Positions 1,166 to 24,595 of a DNA stretch of 25,803 nucleotides are shown piece after piece (within the stretch, counting starts at the first letter, position 1; each line of letters opens with the position of its first letter). The position numbers were made by a program, and so were the translations under genes. Under the pieces are notes generated by a model, which was not told the origin of the DNA, made no database searches, and saw nothing but the letters and a program-made list of their open reading frames with translations. Origin of the DNA: a virus (Duplodnaviria; Heunggongvirae; Uroviricota; Caudoviricetes); the IMG/VR virus record IMGVR_UViG_3300045988_092979, positions 1 to 25,803 of that record; one strand, given 5' to 3'.

Positions 1166-1291
1166 AGAACGCCGCCAGTCGTGAAACTTGTTTTCAGGGC
1201 TGGCGGGGTTGAACAACGAGCGAAGCGAGGCGTTAGTTCAATCGATGATCATAAGCTTATGAGTTAAGCCTCGAGATTTTGTAGAAAGGGT

Positions 1292-1299
1292 TGTATACT
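1292..1299 (+). promoter_or_regulatory. candidate extended -10 promoter element (TGTATACT) upstream of the methyltransferase gene
   Basis: TGnTATACT at 1292-1299, about 25 nt upstream of ATG 1324; GGAG RBS at 1317-1320. No convincing -35. Confidence 0.3.
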
Positions 1300-1323
1300 G
1301 GACATCGTATGGATCTGGAGTGA

Positions 1324-2349
1324 ATGATGATTGTAAAGGTGATAGACCTTTTTTGTGGTGCTGGCGGATTAACTCATGGTTTGCAACTCGCAGGTCTTGA
1401 TGTCGTTGCTGGTATTGACCTTGAGGGGGAATGTCGATTTCCCTATGAAAAAAACAATAAATCAAAGTTTATTGAGAAAGATATCGCTAAAGTAACCAAA
1501 GAGGAATTACTGAAGCTATATGGTGATGCGTCTATAAAAGTATTGGCTGGATGTGCACCTTGCCAACCTTTTTCAAAATATACTCAAGGAAAAGATAAAG
1601 CGGAAGATAAAAAATGGCCTCTTCTTTATGAGTTCGAGCGTTTAATTCGCGAGGTATCTCCAGAAATTGTAACAATGGAGAACGTGCCTGATGTAACTAA
1701 ACATAAAGTTTATAATGACTTTTATTATTCGTTGTTAGAACTGGGATATTATGTTTGGGCATCAAAGGTTGATTGTGTCGAATATGGAATTCCACAGAAC
1801 CGTTCTCGTCATGTATTGTTAGCCTCAAAGTTGGGGGAGATTGAGTTAGTAAAACGTAATGATGTTATTTTGAAAACTGTTAGGGATGCAATAGGTGGTC
1901 TTCCACCATTAGAAGATGGTCAAACAGATCCAAATGATATATTGCATAGAGCCAGTAAATTAAACTCGATTAATAAAAAAAGAATTATACACTCTATTCC
2001 AGGTGGTACATGGAAGGACTGGCCGGAAGAACTTATTGCTGCTTGTCATATGAAGTCTAGCGGTAAAGGGTATGCTAGCGTATATGGGAGGATGTCTTGG
2101 GATAAGCCAAGCCCGACAATTACAACTCTTTGTTATGGTTTTGGGAATGGTCGTTTTGGCCACCCAGAACAGAACAGAGCTATTTCTCTTAGAGAAGCGG
2201 CTTTGTTGCAAACATTTCCTATGGATTATGTTTTTGTTGAAGAACAGGAAAAGTTTGTTATAAGAAGTATTGGAAAAATGATAGGTAATGCTGTACCAGT
2301 TGAGTTAGGAAAAGTCATTGGGCAATCAATAAAAAATCATTTGAAATAA
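1324..2349 (+). CDS. DNA (cytosine-5)-methyltransferase
   Basis: Canonical C5-MTase motifs in the translation: FCGAGG (motif I, AdoMet binding), PCQPFS (motif IV, catalytic Cys), ENVPD (motif VI), QNRSR (motif VIII), GNAVPV near the C-terminus (motif X). AT-rich relative to the phage backbone by eye. Confidence 0.9.
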   Translation: MMIVKVIDLFCGAGGLTHGLQLAGLDVVAGIDLEGECRFPYEKNNKSKFIEKDIAKVTKEELLKLYGDASIKVLAGCAPCQPFSKYTQGKDKAEDKKWPLLYEFERLIREVSPEIVTMENVPDVTKHKVYNDFYYSLLELGYYVWASKVDCVEYGIPQNRSRHVLLASKLGEIELVKRNDVILKTVRDAIGGLPPLEDGQTDPNDILHRASKLNSINKKRIIHSIPGGTWKDWPEELIAACHMKSSGKGYASVYGRMSWDKPSPTITTLCYGFGNGRFGHPEQNRAISLREAALLQTFPMDYVFVEEQEKFVIRSIGKMIGNAVPVELGKVIGQSIKNHLK

Positions 2350-2355
2350 TAAAAT

Positions 2356-2372
2356 GGCCTGCTTTGCAGGCC
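2356..2372. terminator. bidirectional rho-independent terminator hairpin between convergent genes
   Basis: Perfect 7-bp stem GGCCTGC / GCAGGCC with TTT loop; A-rich on the left (T-run for the minus-strand transcript) and T-rich on the right (TTGTGATTATTTC). Confidence 0.6.
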
Positions 2373-2378
2373 TTGTGA

Positions 2379-3059
2379 TTATTTCTCTAAGTATTCATTA
2401 TTATTTATATAATGTTCTATATTATTCGCGATTGCATCAAGATAGGCTATTACTTCTAATGAAATATTCTCTAAATCCTGATATGAAACATTTTTCCCAA
2501 TCTCAGCAAATGATACATTTCCATGAGATAAATCATTGCGATGCTGTTTAACGGTGGCTAATTTTTCACCATGTTTAGTGTGAGTGTAATCAGAATGGGT
2601 TGAAAATCCATATATTTTCGATTTTTCTTTTATTTCCTCTCTATCAATATTGCCTGAAAATATTTTCTTTTTGTTGAATGTACCATAAGAAATACCACAG
2701 GATATGCCTTTAGTAAGTCCGCCGATTAAATTATCGATGTTAACAGATTCATTTTTTAATCTTTTTAAAATTTCTGATTTTAGGTTTTTTTTAAGTTTAT
2801 CAAACTCTATGTTTCTATCATAAATAGTCTCATGTATAAGGCAGATAGCCTCTCTCATTGTTGATTCAATAAGGTTGTATAATAGTATATACACTGCACC
2901 CTTTAGAGTTTTTCGTGATTGAGATGTAATGGTGAACTTATGTTCTTTATTATCGGATGATATCAATTCCGCACCAGCATGCTCAATAAATTTTAAAAGA
3001 TCTAAATAGGCCAAGATTTCTCCTGACCTTTCGTCAAAATCCTCACGAAAACGATCCAT
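2379..3059 (-). CDS. HEPN-like predicted RNase/effector protein (R-x4-H motif); second gene of a two-gene operon
   Basis: 226 aa; C-terminal region contains KQHRNDLSHG, matching the HEPN R-x4-H signature. Start ATG 3059-3057 preceded by GAGGA; separated by one nucleotide from the stop of the upstream DUF262 gene. AT-rich. Confidence 0.6.
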   Translation of the reverse strand: MDRFREDFDERSGEILAYLDLLKFIEHAGAELISSDNKEHKFTITSQSRKTLKGAVYILLYNLIESTMREAICLIHETIYDRNIEFDKLKKNLKSEILKRLKNESVNIDNLIGGLTKGISCGISYGTFNKKKIFSGNIDREEIKEKSKIYGFSTHSDYTHTKHGEKLATVKQHRNDLSHGNVSFAEIGKNVSYQDLENISLEVIAYLDAIANNIEHYINNNEYLEK

Positions 3060-3060
3060 G

Positions 3061-4203
3061 TTAATCCTCTAATAGTTTGTCTCGCACATATTCAATTCGT
3101 TCAATTACCTTCACGCGACTATTTGCTCCGTCGGAGGTGGTTAATTGTTTGAATTCTTCTGAGCTTAGCCAATCTAAGTTTTTGGGGACAAGGTTAGGCT
3201 CTAGACGTAATGCGAGTGCAGCACCAACAGCGAGAGATTCAAATCTAACTCGAGGTGTGGATTTTGCAGTGATAGTTTTCTTAAAGCCTGCTGGGAAATG
3301 GTTTTCAACGAAAGACAGAACATTCGAAAACTCTTCTTTCATTGAGTTTTGTTCAGCTTCATCTATATCACTCTTTTCCTTCATGTAATCATTCAGAAAA
3401 TCACGCACGGAATGATCAAATTTCTTATATTTATCTAAGTAAGCAAAGAATCTCAATGTAAATTCTAACCGTTCATCTCGTTTTTCTTTAGCCTCAGATA
3501 AAGGTGCTAACTCCTTAAATTTAGATATTGTCGAGCATGGCTTAATAACCTGCGTATATAAATTTGTTGAGCCAAGTTCTGAACCTTTACGAACTTCCAT
3601 ATCTTTCAATATGTCACTACCAGAGTTAATTCGCTCAAAAAGATCCCTGCGGGTTTCTTCATTGCATTTAGAACTCAACTCTATAACACGCACAGGAATT
3701 CTCATGAAACGGCGTTGGCGTGATAATGGTAAATCTTGGAATCTGAAACCATTAAGAGAACTTAAAGATTTCAGATCTTGTAAAACTAATTCATTGTGGA
3801 TAAACGCATGTATGGTTCTAACACGCTGTGAGCCATCAACAATTTCAATCCGTCCATCTAAATCGGGATCTTCTGAAAAGACATCAGCTGTAAATATATA
3901 TGGTATAGGGAAGCCCAAAATTAAAGACTCTATTAATCTTGATTGTCTCTTTTCATTCCAAACAAAGTCCCTTTGATAATCAGGAACAAAGAGTTCGTTG
4001 GTATCATCCTCTAACCCGTTATGATATTTATTAACTAATAACTCAACAGTAAATTCTTTGGTCTCAAAGTCAACATCCTTTTGCTCTGCGCGAATTTGCT
4101 CTTCAGCCTCTTGTTTTATAACTTCTAGCTGAGCTAGGAGTTCTGCCCTTTTTTTGGCATTATCTTCATGTTCTAGTTGAGATTTTAACCCAATAATATC
4201 CAT
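3061..4203 (-). CDS. DUF262 (ParB/sulfiredoxin-like NTP-binding) domain protein, GmrSD N-terminal-domain-like, without a fused DUF1524/HNH nuclease domain
   Basis: 380 aa; FVPDYQRDFVW and IEIVDGSQRV match the two hallmark DUF262 motifs (YQRxYxW and DGQQR). Start ATG 4203-4201 preceded by AAGGGA. AT-rich, coiled-coil-like N-terminus. Confidence 0.7.
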   Translation of the reverse strand: MDIIGLKSQLEHEDNAKKRAELLAQLEVIKQEAEEQIRAEQKDVDFETKEFTVELLVNKYHNGLEDDTNELFVPDYQRDFVWNEKRQSRLIESLILGFPIPYIFTADVFSEDPDLDGRIEIVDGSQRVRTIHAFIHNELVLQDLKSLSSLNGFRFQDLPLSRQRRFMRIPVRVIELSSKCNEETRRDLFERINSGSDILKDMEVRKGSELGSTNLYTQVIKPCSTISKFKELAPLSEAKEKRDERLEFTLRFFAYLDKYKKFDHSVRDFLNDYMKEKSDIDEAEQNSMKEEFSNVLSFVENHFPAGFKKTITAKSTPRVRFESLAVGAALALRLEPNLVPKNLDWLSSEEFKQLTTSDGANSRVKVIERIEYVRDKLLED

Positions 4204-4277
4204 ATCCAGATCCCTTAATGATTGTTATAAATGAAAACAGATAGCATACCGCATAGATCAGGAAAAATGCCATCGCA

Positions 4278-4294
4278 TGCATGAATTTGCATGA
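4278..4294. promoter_or_regulatory. candidate operator: direct repeat TGCATGA x2 with 10-bp register, in the promoter region of the minus-strand operon
   Basis: TGCATGA at 4278-4284 and 4288-4294, embedded in overlapping GCATGC/ATGCAT palindromes, about 75-90 nt upstream of the DUF262 start codon. Confidence 0.3.
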
Positions 4295-4387
4295 GAGAAA
4301 GATTACCATTTGGGATTAGCTTTGCCAGTGCTGATGGGTTTTGGAATTTAATCATGTACTGCATCAAAACCGCCTCATGAAGCGGGC

Positions 4388-4406
4388 GGGCGAGGCGGGG
4401 AAAGCA
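4388..4406. other. cos cohesive-end sequence of P2-type phage (GGCGAGGCGGGGAAAGCAC)
   Basis: Exact 19-nt string that I recall as the P2/P4 cohesive end. It lies between the tin/old-equivalent cargo and gene Q, as expected for P2 genome topology. Confidence 0.6.
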
Positions 4407-4549
4407 CTGCGCGCTGGCGGTGGTGCTGATTTTATTTTTTCAGCGTCTCAGCGCGTCGTAATGGCGTTTAGATTGTGCGCCGGGGCGCTGGTGTGTCTGC
4501 GGGCTGTTTTGTGCGGTGGTGAGTGTGTGAGGGCGTGATGACGGGGTGT

Positions 4550-15716: not shown

Positions 15717-16320
15717 TTCGCGACTGCTGCCGACCGGCTCATCACCGCTTGAAGTCGCCGCCGCAAGAGCCTGTGCGGAAATTGAAAAAACGCCGGTCAG
15801 TATTCGTGAGCTGTGGAACCCGGATACCTGTCCGGCAAATCTGCTGCCGTGGCTGGCGTGGTCATTTTCGGTTGACCGCTGGGATGATAAGTGGCCGGAA
15901 GCGACAAAACGCGCTGTTATCCGCGATGCGTATTTCATTCACTGCCATAAGGGCACTATTGGTGCGATTCGCCGTGTGGTGGAGCCGCTCGGCTATCTGA
16001 TTGAGGTGAGGGAGTGGTGGCAGCTCAACGAGGAGCCGGGGACGTTCCGCATCGTTGTTGGCGTGCTTGAGCAGGGTATTACCGAGGAAATGTATCAGGA
16101 GCTGGAGCGTCTCGTTGCTGATGCAAAACCTGCAAGCCGCCATCTGACGGGACTGGCTATCAGTTTAAGTACAACCGGCAACATTTTTGCCGGTGCAGGA
16201 TGCTATCACGGCGACGCCCTGACGGTTTATCCCTACACCCCGGAGGCCATTATTGTCGGAGGGGATTATTTCCCGGCCTCGGCCATTCATTTAATTGATA
16301 ACCTGAGAGTAAACGCATGA
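15709..16320 (+). CDS. I: baseplate/tail protein I
   Basis: Follows J with an 8-nt overlap. 203 aa from this ATG (P2 gpI is smaller by recall, so the true start may be downstream). Confidence 0.75.
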   Translation: MSDSRLLPTGSSPLEVAAARACAEIEKTPVSIRELWNPDTCPANLLPWLAWSFSVDRWDDKWPEATKRAVIRDAYFIHCHKGTIGAIRRVVEPLGYLIEVREWWQLNEEPGTFRIVVGVLEQGITEEMYQELERLVADAKPASRHLTGLAISLSTTGNIFAGAGCYHGDALTVYPYTPEAIIVGGDYFPASAIHLIDNLRVNA

Positions 16321-17834
16321 CAGTGAAATACTACGCCATTCTGACTAATCAGGGCGCAGCACGGCTGGCTAACGCGACGATGCTCGGCAGTAAGCTGAAT
16401 CTGACGCAAATGGCCGTTGGTGATGCGAATGGTGTCTTGCCGACACCAGACCCGGCACAGACAAAACTGATTAACCAGAAACGCATCGCGCCGCTGAATC
16501 TTCTGAGTGTTGACCCGAACAACCAGAGCCAGATTATTGCGGAGCAAATCATCCCTGAGAACGAGGGCGGATTCTGGATCCGTGAGATTGGGCTTTATGA
16601 TGATGAAGGCGTACTCATTGCGGTGGCGAACTGCCCGGAAACGTACAAACCGCAGTTGCAGGAAGGCAGCGGTCGTACCCAGACTATCCGCATGATTCTG
16701 GTTGTCACGAATACCGAAGCTATCACGCTGAAAATCGACCCGTCGGTGGTACTGGCGACCCGTAAATACGTGGATGATGAAGTCCTGGAATTAAGGCTGT
16801 ATGTGGATGACCAGATGAGAAACCACATTGCCGCACAGGATCCTCATACCCAGTATGCACAGAAACATAATCCGACATTTACCGGAGAACCAAAAGCGCC
16901 GACGCCTGCCGCAGGAAATAACACCACGCGGATTGCGACCACTGAGTTTGTTCAGGCCGCTATTACCGCTCTGATTAACGGTGCGCCAGCCACGCTGGAC
17001 ACACTGAAAGAAATTGCCGCAGCCATTAACAATGACCCGAAATTCAGTACCACCATTAACAATGCGCTGTCAGGTAAGCAGCCACTGGATGAGACGCTGA
17101 CTCATTTGAGTGGGAAGGATGTTGCCGGTCTTCTTGCATACCTTGGTATTAAAGACGCATCAACAACACAGGTGGGTTTAGTCCGGTTAACCTCATCGCG
17201 GGTATCGGGTGCAGAGGATATTGCAGCCACAGCTAATGCTGTCGCGCAAAACTATACGGACATAAAATCTTTGCAAAACAAAACTCAGGATTCAACTACG
17301 ACACAGAAAGGAATTGTTCAACTTACATCATCAAGGGTATCCGAATCTGAAACGCTTGCTGCAACAGCAAAAGCGGCAGCGATGAATTATGCGGATATTG
17401 TAGCTCTGCAAGGCAAGACTAATGATGCAACCACTACAAACAAGGGAATTATCCGCGTATCTGATTCCAGAACATCAACAGAATCTGGTGTTGCTGCATC
17501 ATCACTTGCTGCATCACAAAACTATTCAGATATGAAAGGGTTGTTTGGTCAATGCGGAATGAAATCTAGAAATCTCGGTGTCGTATACACCAACAGCCAG
17601 TCTTTCGCCATATTTGTAAGCGTCAATGCGGTGCTGTCTGACGGTAGTTCATTTCTGAGCGCCAACGTTAATGTGGATGGTAATTCGGCTAATTTTCGCG
17701 GCTCTCAGACAACAAATCTTGCAGGGCAAAGAGCAACTATCGCATTCATGGTTCCTGCCGGTGCGACCTATATTGTGCAGCAGTTTTCAGGAACAGTGTC
17801 AGATGTTACCTGGGTAGAGGTGGATAAAAAATGA
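16317..17834 (+). CDS. H: tail fibre protein H; constant part to 17144, currently expressed variable C-terminal part 17145-17834
   Basis: 505 aa; N-terminal two-thirds in the canonical H position; the distal part contains three tandem ~45-aa repeats and is AT-rich. A hix-like crossover site lies in frame at 17131-17156. Confidence 0.85.
   Translation: MTVKYYAILTNQGAARLANATMLGSKLNLTQMAVGDANGVLPTPDPAQTKLINQKRIAPLNLLSVDPNNQSQIIAEQIIPENEGGFWIREIGLYDDEGVLIAVANCPETYKPQLQEGSGRTQTIRMILVVTNTEAITLKIDPSVVLATRKYVDDEVLELRLYVDDQMRNHIAAQDPHTQYAQKHNPTFTGEPKAPTPAAGNNTTRIATTEFVQAAITALINGAPATLDTLKEIAAAINNDPKFSTTINNALSGKQPLDETLTHLSGKDVAGLLAYLGIKDASTTQVGLVRLTSSRVSGAEDIAATANAVAQNYTDIKSLQNKTQDSTTTQKGIVQLTSSRVSESETLAATAKAAAMNYADIVALQGKTNDATTTNKGIIRVSDSRTSTESGVAASSLAASQNYSDMKGLFGQCGMKSRNLGVVYTNSQSFAIFVSVNAVLSDGSSFLSANVNVDGNSANFRGSQTTNLAGQRATIAFMVPAGATYIVQQFSGTVSDVTWVEVDKK
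17131..17156. other. hix/gix-like 26-bp inversion crossover site (left), inside H
   Basis: TTCTTGCATACC-TT-GGTATTAAAGAC: 12-bp half-sites around a 2-bp core; left half matches the Salmonella hixL half-site TTCTTGAAAACC at 10/12 (from memory). Core TT is complementary to core AA of the right site. Confidence 0.6.
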
Positions 17835-18199
17835 TAACAATGATGAAGTATTACAAAGATGAAAATAACGTCGTATATGCCTACGATGCGTATGGCACAC
17901 AGGATGCTTTTATCAAAGAAGGGCTTGTGCCAATCACCAGAAGTGAGGCTATGGCAATTATTAATCCCCCACCGACTCATGAACAACTCATCCAGGCTGC
18001 TGAAAATGAGCGACAGCGATTACTGTCCGCCGCTGATGCAATTATGCTCGACTGGCGCACAGAGCTGATGCTGGGTGAAATCAGCGATGCCAACAGAGCT
18101 AAACTTTCGGCGTGGCTTTTATATAAGAATCAGGTTAAGGCTGTTGATGTAACAACCGACCCTGAGCATGTTAACTGGCCTGTCATCCCGGAACTTTAG
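17831..18199 (+). CDS. G: tail fibre assembly chaperone (Tfa)
   Basis: 122 aa immediately after H with ATGA overlap; ends in a WPxxP-type motif (NWPVIPEL) typical of Tfa proteins. AT-rich. Confidence 0.7.
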   Translation: MITMMKYYKDENNVVYAYDAYGTQDAFIKEGLVPITRSEAMAIINPPPTHEQLIQAAENERQRLLSAADAIMLDWRTELMLGEISDANRAKLSAWLLYKNQVKAVDVTTDPEHVNWPVIPEL

Positions 18200-18205
18200 A
18201 CCATA

Positions 18206-18250
18206 CTGGTCTTGCTACATCAATGCGCATCAGCAAGACCAGCTATTTTC
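18206..18250 (+). terminator. stem-loop/terminator after the tail-fibre assembly gene
   Basis: 11-bp perfect inverted repeat CTGGTCTTGCT / AGCAAGACCAG (18206-18216 and 18232-18242) with a 15-nt loop, followed by CTATTTTC. Confidence 0.5.
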
Positions 18251-18301
18251 AAACTAAGCAACATAGCCCTCCGCTACTCCTCCTGTTCGAAACGAACGTT
18301 T

Positions 18302-18733
18302 TCATGCCGCCCTTACGATATAATTAAACGCAATGTTACGAGGACGAATGGTTACATAATTAACCCCATCACCTCGTGAAGGCCCTGCAAATGAAAAACG
18401 GGAAAATCCTGGTTGGTTAGAAACAATTTGGTCATAGTTATTGATTGAATGACCAGACCCAATGTCGAAATTACCTCCGTAATGAGAAAAACTTGTACCA
18501 TCCTGCCCTGAAAGCAGGGTACGTCCCGCATCAATCCCGCGCCCATCATCCCAGCCACGGATAAATTCACCGCGTAAATCCGGTAATTTATTGGTGGGGT
18601 AGGCTTTTGCCAGTTTGGGATACATTTCAGAAGAAAATGCTGCACCATTGCATTTTAGCCAGCCCGTTGGTGGTGTTTCTAAGGGCCACGGAACGGGCAC
18701 ACCAACAGGCAGTGCAGAGCCTTCCCCCAAACC
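18302..18733 (-). CDS. silent, start-less alternative tail-fibre C-terminal cassette in inverted orientation
   Basis: Translation (…GWLKCNGAAFSSEMYPKLAKAYPTNKLPDLRGEFIRGWDDGRGID…) is a classic P2 H / Mu S-type fibre C-terminus. Its 5' end coincides with the right crossover site, so the track ATG at 18775 is not a real start. Confidence 0.7.
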   Translation of the reverse strand, partial: GLGEGSALPVGVPVPWPLETPPTGWLKCNGAAFSSEMYPKLAKAYPTNKLPDLRGEFIRGWDDGRGIDAGRTLLSGQDGTSFSHYGGNFDIGSGHSINNYDQIVSNQPGFSRFSFAGPSRGDGVNYVTIRPRNIAFNYIVRAA

Positions 18734-18747
18734 AACGTTTATGAAAA
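18722..18747. other. hix/gix-like 26-bp inversion crossover site (right)
   Basis: TTCCCCCAAACC-AA-CGTTTATGAAAA: 19/26 identity to hixL TTCTTGAAAACCAAGGTTTTTGATAA (from memory), conserved AAACC..GTTT inner positions, 56 bp upstream of the invertase start. Confidence 0.6.
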
Positions 18748-18802
18748 TGCAGAGACAACGGGTAACTGGCATCATCTCCGGTTTTTATTCAGGGGGATGC
18801 TC

Positions 18803-19396
18803 ATGCTTATTGGCTATGTACGCGTGTCAACAAATGACCAGAACACGGAATTGCAGCGTAACGCGCTGGAGTGCGCAGGATGTGAGCTGATTTTTGAGGA
18901 TAAAATCAGCGGCACTAAGTCCGACCGACCGGGACTGAAAAAACTGCTCAGGACATTATCGGAGGGGGATACACTGGTGGTCTGGAAGCTGGACAGGCTG
19001 GGGCGTAGTATGCGGCATCTGGTCATTCTGGTTGAGGAGCTGCGCGAACGCGGCGTTAATTTTCGCAGCCTGACGGATGCTATTGATACCAGCACGCCGA
19101 TGGGGCGTTTTTTCTTTCATGTGATGGGTGCCCTGGCTGAAATGGAACGAGAACTCATTGTCGAGCGGACACGCGCCGGACTGGAAGCGACCAGAGCTAA
19201 AGGTCGTATTGGTGGCAGACGTCCGAAGCTCACCGCGAGTGAGTGGGAACAGGCAGGACGGTTGCTGGCTGCGGGTGAATCACGTCAACGCGTGGCGCTG
19301 ATTTTTGATATTGGCCTGTCCACGCTCTATAAAAAATTCCCCTCATCAGCGACAAAGAATAAATTGTGTCATCCCTTAGCCAACCGGGACAAATAG
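18803..19396 (+). CDS. site-specific DNA invertase, serine recombinase of the Hin/Gin/Cin/Pin family
   Basis: N-terminus MLIGYVRVSTNDQ with the catalytic serine, and near colinear similarity to Gin as I recall it (…LVVWKLDRLGRSM…GRFFFHVMGALAEMERELI…GRIGGRRPKL…). GGGGG RBS upstream; the track ORF starts two codons earlier. Confidence 0.9.
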   Translation: MLIGYVRVSTNDQNTELQRNALECAGCELIFEDKISGTKSDRPGLKKLLRTLSEGDTLVVWKLDRLGRSMRHLVILVEELRERGVNFRSLTDAIDTSTPMGRFFFHVMGALAEMERELIVERTRAGLEATRAKGRIGGRRPKLTASEWEQAGRLLAAGESRQRVALIFDIGLSTLYKKFPSSATKNKLCHPLANRDK

Positions 19397-24115: not shown

Positions 24116-24595
24116 ATGATGCTCGCGTTAGGTATGTTTGTTTTTATGCGCCAGACGCTGCCACACCAGACCATGCAGCGTGAATCAGATTATCGCTGGC
24201 CGTCAAATTCCCGTATCGGTAAACGGGACGCTTTTCAGTTTCTCGGTGTGGGTGAGGAAAACATCACGCTTGCCGGTGTGCTTTATCCCGAACTGACCGG
24301 CGGCAAGCTGACGATGACCACGCTCAGGCTGATGGCAGAGGAGGGGCGGGCGTGGCCGTTGCTGGATGGCACCGGCATGATTTACGGCATGTATGTCATC
24401 AGCAAGGTGAGTGAAACAGGGAGTATTTTCTTTGCAGACGGCACACCCCGGAAAATTGATTTTACGCTGTCGCTCACCCGCGTTGATGAATCACTGGCCG
24501 CGCTTTATGGCGATATCGGTAAACAGGCGGAATCGCTCATCGGTAAGGCTGGCAGTATGGCGACTAAATTCACGGGTATGACGGGGGCGGGATAA
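24116..24595 (+). CDS. U: tail protein U
   Basis: 159 aa as P2 gpU; GGAGGTGA RBS. Confidence 0.85.
   Translation: MMLALGMFVFMRQTLPHQTMQRESDYRWPSNSRIGKRDAFQFLGVGEENITLAGVLYPELTGGKLTMTTLRLMAEEGRAWPLLDGTGMIYGMYVISKVSETGSIFFADGTPRKIDFTLSLTRVDESLAALYGDIGKQAESLIGKAGSMATKFTGMTGAG

Follow-up and report, generated by a model that had tools for sequence, protein, structure and literature searches.

The window analysed here is the whole stretch of 25,803 nucleotides at positions 1 to 25,803 of the IMG/VR virus record IMGVR_UViG_3300045988_092979, and it is a P2-like (Peduovirus) prophage. Its cargo region contains exactly three genes: a C5-cytosine DNA methyltransferase (methylase) gene on the plus strand and, on the minus strand, genes for a HEPN protein and for a DUF262 protein with a ParB-like nucleoside triphosphatase (NTPase) domain. 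These genes and the elements around them are listed below, each with the basis of the assignment.

1324–2349, plus strand: C5-cytosine DNA methyltransferase; open reading frame (ORF) of 341 amino acids, likely true start at 1327
2379–3059, minus strand: HEPN protein of the MAE_28990 family, 226 amino acids (PF18737, E-value 2.8e-29; Rx4H motif R174-N-D-L-S-H179)
3061–4203, minus strand: DUF262/ParB-like NTPase protein, NsnA-like, 380 amino acids (Pfam, PADLOC, AF2, Foldseek)
~1239–4358, no strand: cargo cassette of ~3.1 kb (backbone breakpoints 1238/4359; GC profile)
1270–1299, plus strand: candidate methylase promoter, with -35 TCGAGA at 1271–1276, a 17-bp spacer and -10 TATACT at 1294–1299 (consensus scan)
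2356–2372, both strands: bidirectional terminator-like hairpin GGCCTGC-TTT-GCAGGCC (terminator scan)
4241–4293, minus strand: conserved non-coding block upstream of the DUF262 gene, CATGCAAATTCATGCA...ATGGCAT...GGTATGCTA (sequence conservation)
4389–4407, no strand: P2 cos site GGCGAGGCGGGGAAAGCAC, right border of the hotspot

The left flank of the cargo (positions 1–1238) holds the end of replication gene A, an orf91 homologue (DUF3850/ASCH) and a small ORF, and from 4359 onwards come cos and then the portal, terminase, scaffold and capsid genes. When the window is compared with a prophage that carries a different allele, homology in the P2 backbone stops at 1238 and restarts at 4359, and the same break is seen against P2-like phages. 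The GC content of the cargo is ~33–40%, compared with 55–58% in the phage backbone. The sequence at 4389–4407 is presumably the P2 cos sequence; the linear P2-like phage records S164 and L-413C terminate at positions 4406–4407 of the window. The annotations of the flanking genes, namely replication endonuclease, DUF3850 (orf91), portal and terminase, place the cargo in the P2 hotspot, where variable genes lie between gene A/orf91 and cos/portal gene Q (Rousset 2022; hotspot #1 of Vassallo 2022). This is the classical P2 variable locus, occupied by tin and old in P2 and now known as a defence hotspot.

Proteins encoded by the cargo

The methylase matches Pfam PF00145 (DNA_methylase; E-value 7.6e-58, residues 5–337 aligned to positions 2–323 of the 324-position profile) and TIGR00675 (dcm; 7.4e-37), and its best matches among the PADLOC profiles are DrmMII (5.3e-92) and MTase_II (4.5e-88). 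A first-pass annotation, made from the sequence alone, had read the motifs FCGAGG, PCQ, ENV, QxRxR and GNAV in this ORF, and the reading stands up to alignment. Motif I (F10-C11-G12-x-G14-G15, FCGAGG), motif IV (P79-C80-Q81), motif VI (E119-N120-V121), motif VIII (Q158-x-R160-x-R162, QNRSR) and motif X (G321-N322-A323-V324) are invariant in a 39-sequence family alignment and also across 52 loci, in the canonical order, and the same motifs are present in a pairwise alignment with M.HaeIII (1dct). Judged by these motifs, the product of 1324–2349 is a bona fide C5-cytosine DNA methyltransferase. The PGAP start in a 99.3%-identical E. coli record is the second ATG, at 1327, which gives a protein of 340 amino acids, and the Tatumella orthologue aligns with the same codon.

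The region of the methylase that includes the target-recognition domain (residues ~181–300) is at least as conserved as the catalytic core, and the specificity of the family is probably conserved or narrow in range. As guides to the target, the PDB relatives M.HaeIII, DNMT1 and M.HhaI were rejected because they have only the core in common with the methylase, and NCBIfam because it assigns the methylase at the superfamily level only. The PADLOC matches were likewise rejected as a sign of orthology to a characterised enzyme, since all family members score equally on DrmMII and MTase_II, at ~290–320 bits. Comparison with the termini of the Serratia DrmMII, taken from primer sequences (MKKVSCV..., ...WNMVTVE), does not settle its orthology with the window methylase.

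The DUF262 protein matches Pfam GmrSD_N (6.6e-27) and, over its full length, the PADLOC profile NsnA (3.3e-55; residues 25–374 aligned to positions 23–376 of 385), with a weaker match to PD-T4-2_A (1.2e-34). Its AlphaFold (AF2) model, with a predicted local distance difference test score (pLDDT) of 84.5, comprises an N-terminal helix, a ParB/Srx domain (~45–195) and an all-helical C-terminal domain (~209–378). In a Foldseek search this model retrieved BrxU (7p9k) as the top match (E-value 3.3e-04), followed by ParB CTPases; a sequence search of the PDB returned nothing useful. The NTPase motifs QRxFVW (77–82) and DGSQR (123–127) are invariant, and neither DUF1524 nor any other DNase domain was found in the protein by the Pfam scan, in the AF2 model or by Foldseek.

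The third protein has a HEPN fold, and R174-N-x-L-x-H179 is invariant in 73 homologues; because of this conserved Rx4H site it is predicted to be an RNase. A PDB search found no sequence relative, and no PADLOC profile, including PD-T4-2_B, matched at E ≤ 0.01 (for allele 2, described below, likewise at E ≤ 1e-05). The stop codon of the DUF262 gene and the start codon of the HEPN gene are 1 nt apart (GAGGAT-TAA-C-ATG), with a Shine-Dalgarno sequence, GAGGA, inside the DUF262 gene. This spacing and the internal GAGGA suggest that translation of the two genes is coupled and that their products form a complex.

Linkage, co-evolution and mobility of the three genes

One genome per species (~186,000 species-representative genomes) was searched with an alignment of DUF262 homologues, so that the methylase did not serve as bait. 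The scan returned 408 relatives, of which the best 80 loci were retained and searched by tblastn with the three window proteins. These loci come from at least 10 phyla (Pseudomonadota, Bacteroidota, Cyanobacteriota, Planctomycetota, Acidobacteriota, Nitrospirota, Verrucomicrobiota, Lentisphaerota, Spirochaetota and Desulfobacterota). A HEPN gene lies directly downstream of the DUF262 gene in 77 of the 80, and two of the other three run into a contig end. In 52 loci an orthologous methylase (47–86% identity) is adjacent, mostly within 136 bp; it is either convergent after the HEPN gene, which is the window arrangement, or shares the strand of DUF262 and then, except at one locus, lies upstream of it. 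The two orientations are found in 25 and 26 loci, respectively; placement on either side in similar numbers is typical of restriction-modification (R-M) gene pairs. A different methylase-fold gene occupies the same position in 12 loci (divergent C5 enzymes, one N6/N4 enzyme and one RsmB/F-like enzyme), so that 64 of the 80 have an adjacent methylase-fold gene of some kind. The remaining 16 have none, and 10 of these are truncated at a contig end.

The pairwise-identity matrices of the three proteins are correlated, with Mantel r of 0.71 for methylase and DUF262, 0.76 for methylase and HEPN and 0.89 for DUF262 and HEPN (each p ~5e-4). The conserved adjacency and the correlated matrices, together with the common cassette described below, make the earlier description of the methylase as solitary untenable. 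On these genomic comparisons, the methylase, DUF262 and HEPN genes bear the marks of a functional three-gene unit.

Several loci depart from the common arrangement. The methylase slot after HEPN is filled in two cyanobacterial loci by an RsmB/F-type enzyme, a member of an RNA 5-methylcytosine family (L057:9795–10760), and by an N6/N4 DNA methylase (L079:9827–10804); the former is an odd neighbour for a predicted RNase. A third cyanobacterial locus (L025:8001–10196) has DUF262 and an orthologous methylase 136 bp apart and no HEPN gene, and at locus L018 the HEPN gene is apparently split or duplicated. Among the neighbours checked at the methylase-less loci of Oscillatoriales are BrkB, a STAND NTPase and ORFs that match no family.

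The window-type trio occupies the P2 hotspot in 9 of 5426 complete E. coli genomes, on two P2 backbones, one of which lacks orf91. Two more diverged alleles are found in the same hotspot in 4 and 3 further genomes of this set and in a 186-like Klebsiella prophage. The trio is always complete, a partial trio being present in none of the 16 E. coli carriers, and the methylase, HEPN and DUF262 genes move as one cassette. Allele 2, from E. coli and Klebsiella, is 71–73% identical to the window in the methylase, 43–45% in DUF262 and ~31% in HEPN. A plasmid collection contained only one copy of the trio, at 24425–27442 of NZ_CP069825.1 from Klebsiella pneumoniae (76% DNA identity); at 32 kb, this record looks more like a P2-like phage genome that has been circularised than like a plasmid.

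Starting instead from the methylase, we scanned its alignment over metagenome contigs and obtained 80 loci with orthologues of 52–87% identity. DUF262 and/or HEPN genes are present in 22 of these (both in 20), and 31 with at least 2 kb on each side have neither. The latter comprise 22 loci with another NTPase-type partner, 3 with Vsr only and 6 with no classified partner. At 11 of the 31 the neighbour is an SNF2 helicase of 1040–1110 amino acids, recognised by PADLOC as DISARM DrmA/DrmD (~1700 bits), and at another 11 it is a GHKL (HATPase_c_3) ATPase, a protein placed by PADLOC among the type II restriction endonucleases; the Vsr mismatch endonuclease often accompanies both. No classical restriction endonuclease partner was seen in this metagenome sample. 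The methylases of the three partner types are mutually ~55% identical, the same as within the DUF262-HEPN class. In DISARM, methylation of the methylase sites is an 'off switch' for defence, and the methylase family as a whole, common to DISARM-like and GHKL-ATPase systems, looks like an exchangeable self-marking module for several NTPase-driven defence systems.

In the non-coding parts of the cassette, the palindrome CTCGAG (1270–1275) overlaps the candidate -35 element of the methylase. E. coli alleles 1 and 2, Klebsiella and Tatumella all have the pattern CTCGAG(A/G)TTTT...TATACT ahead of the methylase gene. Because this block is conserved while its flanks diverge, the methylase is probably transcribed from a promoter of its own and produced in the lysogen. 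CTCGAG also fits MTCGAK, the motif reported for DrmMII of the Serratia class 1 DISARM system, and so does ATCGAT (1241–1246), which lies right at the left cassette junction. These sites may represent a cognate site or an autoregulation element and are a candidate lead, not a finding; such sites upstream of the methylase are conserved in the enterobacterial alleles only and not in other phyla.

A bidirectional terminator had been proposed at 2356–2372, and the hairpin is indeed present there, terminator-like on both strands, inside the 29-bp gap that separates the convergent methylase and HEPN stop codons. The terminator scan of the region gave 8 sites against 2.4 expected. The hairpin is not a conserved element; allele 2 has instead an overlap between the methylase and HEPN genes, of 4 nt in E. 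coli and 22 nt in Klebsiella. The block at 4241–4293 is common to the window, a 90%-identical E. coli allele and Tatumella, and includes the direct repeat CATGCA-AATT-CATGCA. A sigma-70 consensus scan upstream of the DUF262 gene found no promoter, and that this block might be a promoter or operator of the DUF262-HEPN operon is only a guess.

Outside the cargo, the orf91 homologue (465–953) combines DUF3850/ASCH with DUF7415, and in the near-identical E. coli record a PAPS-reductase-family gene (L002:1–213) lies just upstream of replication gene A, beyond the window. The region at 16317–19396 is a tail-fibre region with the layout of an invertible segment and coincides with a second dip in GC content (44–49%). 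It contains the following genes.

16317–17834: tail fibre H
17831–18199: tail-fibre assembly protein
18302–18775, minus strand: ORF with a phage tail Collar domain, in the opposite orientation
18797–19396: Gin/Cin-type serine invertase (Resolvase + HTH_7)

A candidate self mark and the alternatives

We consider it fairly probable that the trio is an R-M-like defence cassette in which 5-methylcytosine marks self, the DUF262 protein senses DNA and the HEPN protein is the effector. The methylase, expressed from its own promoter in the lysogen, would methylate its target sites at C5 of cytosine in the DNA of both host and prophage. We take this methylation to be a protective self mark because a self-encoded methylase is kept next to the DUF262-HEPN pair. 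The DUF262 protein, a ParB-type NTPase with a helical DNA-binding domain like that of NsnA, would inspect DNA and respond to the unmethylated DNA of an invader. In a study of Menshen (NAR 2025 gkaf357), ParB-DUF262 together with a 'ParBDB' was proposed as a DNA sensor, and the authors speculate that methylase-linked ParB-DUF262 proteins may target non-modified genomes. Once triggered, DUF262 would license the translationally coupled HEPN protein, which, rather than a ParB-type DNase, would act as the effector with RNA as its target; cutting RNA would shut down the expression of phage genes or make the infection abortive. Spelled out in full, as an R-M system without a DNA endonuclease in which DUF262 detects unmethylated DNA and HEPN cleaves RNA, possibly abortively, the proposal is tentative, and we hold it possible rather than probable. 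That the methylase also or instead methylates the RNA cut by HEPN, in a Dnmt2-like manner, is much less likely; the one hint in this direction is the RsmB/F-type locus.

Several observations weigh against the self-mark proposal. PD-T4-2, a DUF262-HEPN pair, is active when cloned without a methylase, and a linked methylase is thus not universally needed by such pairs; six DUF262-HEPN loci of Oscillatoriales with intact flanks have no adjacent methylase. In class 1 DISARM, deletion of the methylases caused no autoimmunity, so a related methylase need not be essential for self-protection. The characterised DUF262 enzymes GmrSD and BrxU recognise modified, not unmodified, DNA, and no recognisable DNase is present in the trio, so that classical DNA restriction is not supported. 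The methylase has, moreover, recombined relative to DUF262-HEPN, as in allele 2 (73% identity in the methylase, compared with 43–45% in DUF262 and 31% in HEPN), which is awkward for a sequence-matched R-M pair unless one specificity is common to all the methylases. Finally, each step of the mechanism is one that we infer from sequence.

Alternatively, the trio could follow the two-layer model that has been published for HEPN genes linked to R-M systems (Anantharaman et al. 2013) and that resembles PrrC. The methylase and DUF262 would then form a first line that cuts or nicks DNA, and the HEPN RNase would be a latent second line, held inactive by DUF262 and released only when a phage disables the first. 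Some ParB-superfamily proteins are nucleases or nickases, the DUF262 domain weakly matches the PADLOC profile REase_II PDLC03418 (3.1e-05; 2.5e-08 for allele 2), indicating that similar proteins have been filed as type II restriction endonucleases, and the cyanobacterial locus L025 retains the methylase and DUF262 and has lost HEPN. However, in characterised DUF262 enzymes the ParB domain is the NTPase and sensor, and cutting is done by DUF1524, which is absent here. In addition, HEPN persists in 77 of the 80 loci, and it is the protein that co-evolves most tightly with DUF262 (r 0.89); an obligate partner fits these facts better than an optional backup. We therefore regard the two-layer model as unlikely, while giving it some weight. 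Less probable still is a type IV-like system, in which DUF262-HEPN would attack foreign-modified DNA, as GmrSD and BrxU do and PD-T4-2 may, and the methylase would be linked for another reason: to shield the phage DNA from other R-M systems, to tune the sensor on self DNA as phosphorothioate does for SspE, or to stabilise the cassette. GmrSD and BrxU do read modified cytosines, the NTPase of SspE is stimulated by self modification, some DUF262-HEPN loci are without a methylase, and PD-T4-2, cloned without one, protects against T4, which has glucosylated hydroxymethylcytosine (glucosyl-hmC) in its DNA. Yet a sensor of 5-methylcytosine beside a 5-methylcytosine methylase would be self-toxic, the filling of the slot by unrelated methylase classes (C5 and N6/N4) is the pattern of a protective mark and not of a single ligand, and DISARM, which acts on unmethylated DNA, draws on the same methylase family.

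The first-pass annotation had offered a phage anti-restriction methylase as one role, and this would make the gene an orphan that merely shares the hotspot with an unrelated DUF262-HEPN system. The early operon of P2-like phages often ends in accessory genes, the methylase points the same way as gpA and lytic transcription could run on into it, and hotspots do stack unrelated genes. Against this, the methylase adjoins DUF262-HEPN in at least 10 phyla, beyond P2 and beyond prophages, the three proteins co-evolve, the genes form one low-GC block with common breakpoints, and partial trios are absent from the E. coli carriers; we give the orphan role very little credence. The other role suggested at that time was a functional link between the methylase and DUF262, with the latter reading modified DNA as GmrSD-type enzymes do. 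The link itself is supported by synteny, co-evolution and joint mobility, but the direction of reading was probably the wrong way round, as DUF1524 is missing and a self-encoded methylase fits a protective mark.

Should the trio indeed be an R-M-like cassette with a methylation self mark, it would join self/non-self discrimination by DNA methylation with HEPN RNase effectors, two fields usually treated apart, and would constitute epigenetically gated, RNA-targeting immunity in at least 10 bacterial phyla and on P2 prophages in enterobacteria. It would also offer a simple three-gene system in which to ask how a ParB/DUF262 NTPase reads DNA methylation, a question that is the same for Menshen, Dazbog and PD-T4-2. 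The family is also frequent enough to be relevant to defence annotation: 408 of ~186,000 species-representative genomes contain relatives, E. coli P2 prophages carry three alleles, and the trio would go uncalled because PADLOC 2.0 is without a profile for its HEPN protein. In practice, prophage methylases of this sort alter the host methylome and can block transformation or phage therapy.

Comparison with known systems

The trio falls outside classical type II R-M systems, to which it is linked by the catalytic core of the methylase, which aligns with M.HaeIII. No gene for a PD-(D/E)xK, HNH, GIY-YIG or PLD nuclease adjoins the methylase, the only neighbours being GmrSD_N and HEPN. The earlier remark that no restriction endonuclease is adjacent thus holds for these nuclease families, and fails in so far as a conserved partner, DUF262-HEPN, is adjacent; an adjacent cognate endonuclease, which the first-pass annotation had named as a finding that would overturn its view, exists in spirit only, in the form of this non-canonical pair.

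With DISARM, the trio has in common a methylase whose best PADLOC match is DrmMII, and orthologues of this methylase at ~55–60% identity adjoin DrmA/DrmD-type SNF2 helicases. At ~290–320 bits on the DrmMII profile, however, the window methylase family comprises relatives, not members, of the profiled DrmMII family, and the cargo (1239–4358) contains no gene for the helicase (drmA), DUF1998 (drmB) or PLD (drmC) component.

In common with GmrSD, BrxU and SspE, the DUF262 protein has a ParB/Srx-like DUF262 NTPase domain in its N-terminal part, with the motifs QRxxxW and DGxQR; its best structural match is BrxU. The window protein lacks the DUF1524 His-Me nuclease. Modified DNA is what GmrSD and BrxU attack, and neither has a cognate methylase. 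It was not classed as a GmrSD-type enzyme: GmrSD_N is present, but DUF1524 is found neither in the protein nor in its neighbours, and the C-terminal half is all-helical. SspE is a DUF262 protein that works with a self-modification module, phosphorothioate, by which its NTPase activity is stimulated.

Menshen (NsnABC; Millman et al. 2022) has a full-length homologue of the window DUF262 protein in NsnA, and its effectors are mostly RNases. The trio differs in that NsnA is followed by neither NsnB (ABC ATPase + DUF3696) nor NsnC, the next genes being those for HEPN and the methylase, in that HEPN is coupled to the sensor, and in that the methylase is a near-constant third gene; it was accordingly not assigned to Menshen. 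PD-T4-2 from E. coli ECOR65 (Vassallo et al. 2022), which protects from T4, shows the same order of DUF262 followed by HEPN, and the window protein matches its A profile. The two ORFs of PD-T4-2 span 1540 bp, compared with 1825 bp in the window, and are without a methylase. Assignment of the trio to PD-T4-2 was rejected, as NsnA outscores the A profile (3.3e-55 versus 1.2e-34) and the HEPN protein does not match PD-T4-2_B. PrrC-EcoprrI, in which an anticodon nuclease is embedded within a type I R-M system, resembles the trio in tying a HEPN RNase, genetically and functionally, to a self/non-self system based on DNA methylation. PrrC, however, has its own ABC NTPase and is associated with a complete hsdMSR set that includes a real DNA endonuclease, whereas in the window the NTPase is a separate ParB-type protein and no DNase is recognisable.

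The closest precedent is an entry in Table 1 of Anantharaman et al. 2013 (Biol Direct 8:15), which lists a MAE_28990 HEPN gene (Rx4-6H) with an adjacent ParB-like (DUF262) gene and an adjacent DNA methylase gene. The window trio has the same three components in the corresponding order and adjacency, the same HEPN family (PF18737) and the Rx4H site (R174-x4-H179). The entry takes up a single row of that table, accompanied by a generic hypothesis modelled on PrrC, and includes no distribution, co-evolution, hotspot context or experiment, and what it terms a ParB nuclease is here a full-length NsnA-like protein, the putative sensor, without a nuclease domain. A literature search for MAE_28990 returned one paper, searches for DUF262 with HEPN, with or without methyltransferase, found no description of the trio beyond that of 2013, and the main text of Rousset et al. 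2022 does not mention DUF262 or methylases. The trio has thus been glimpsed computationally before, and it appears to be an R-M-like defence system assembled from known modules.

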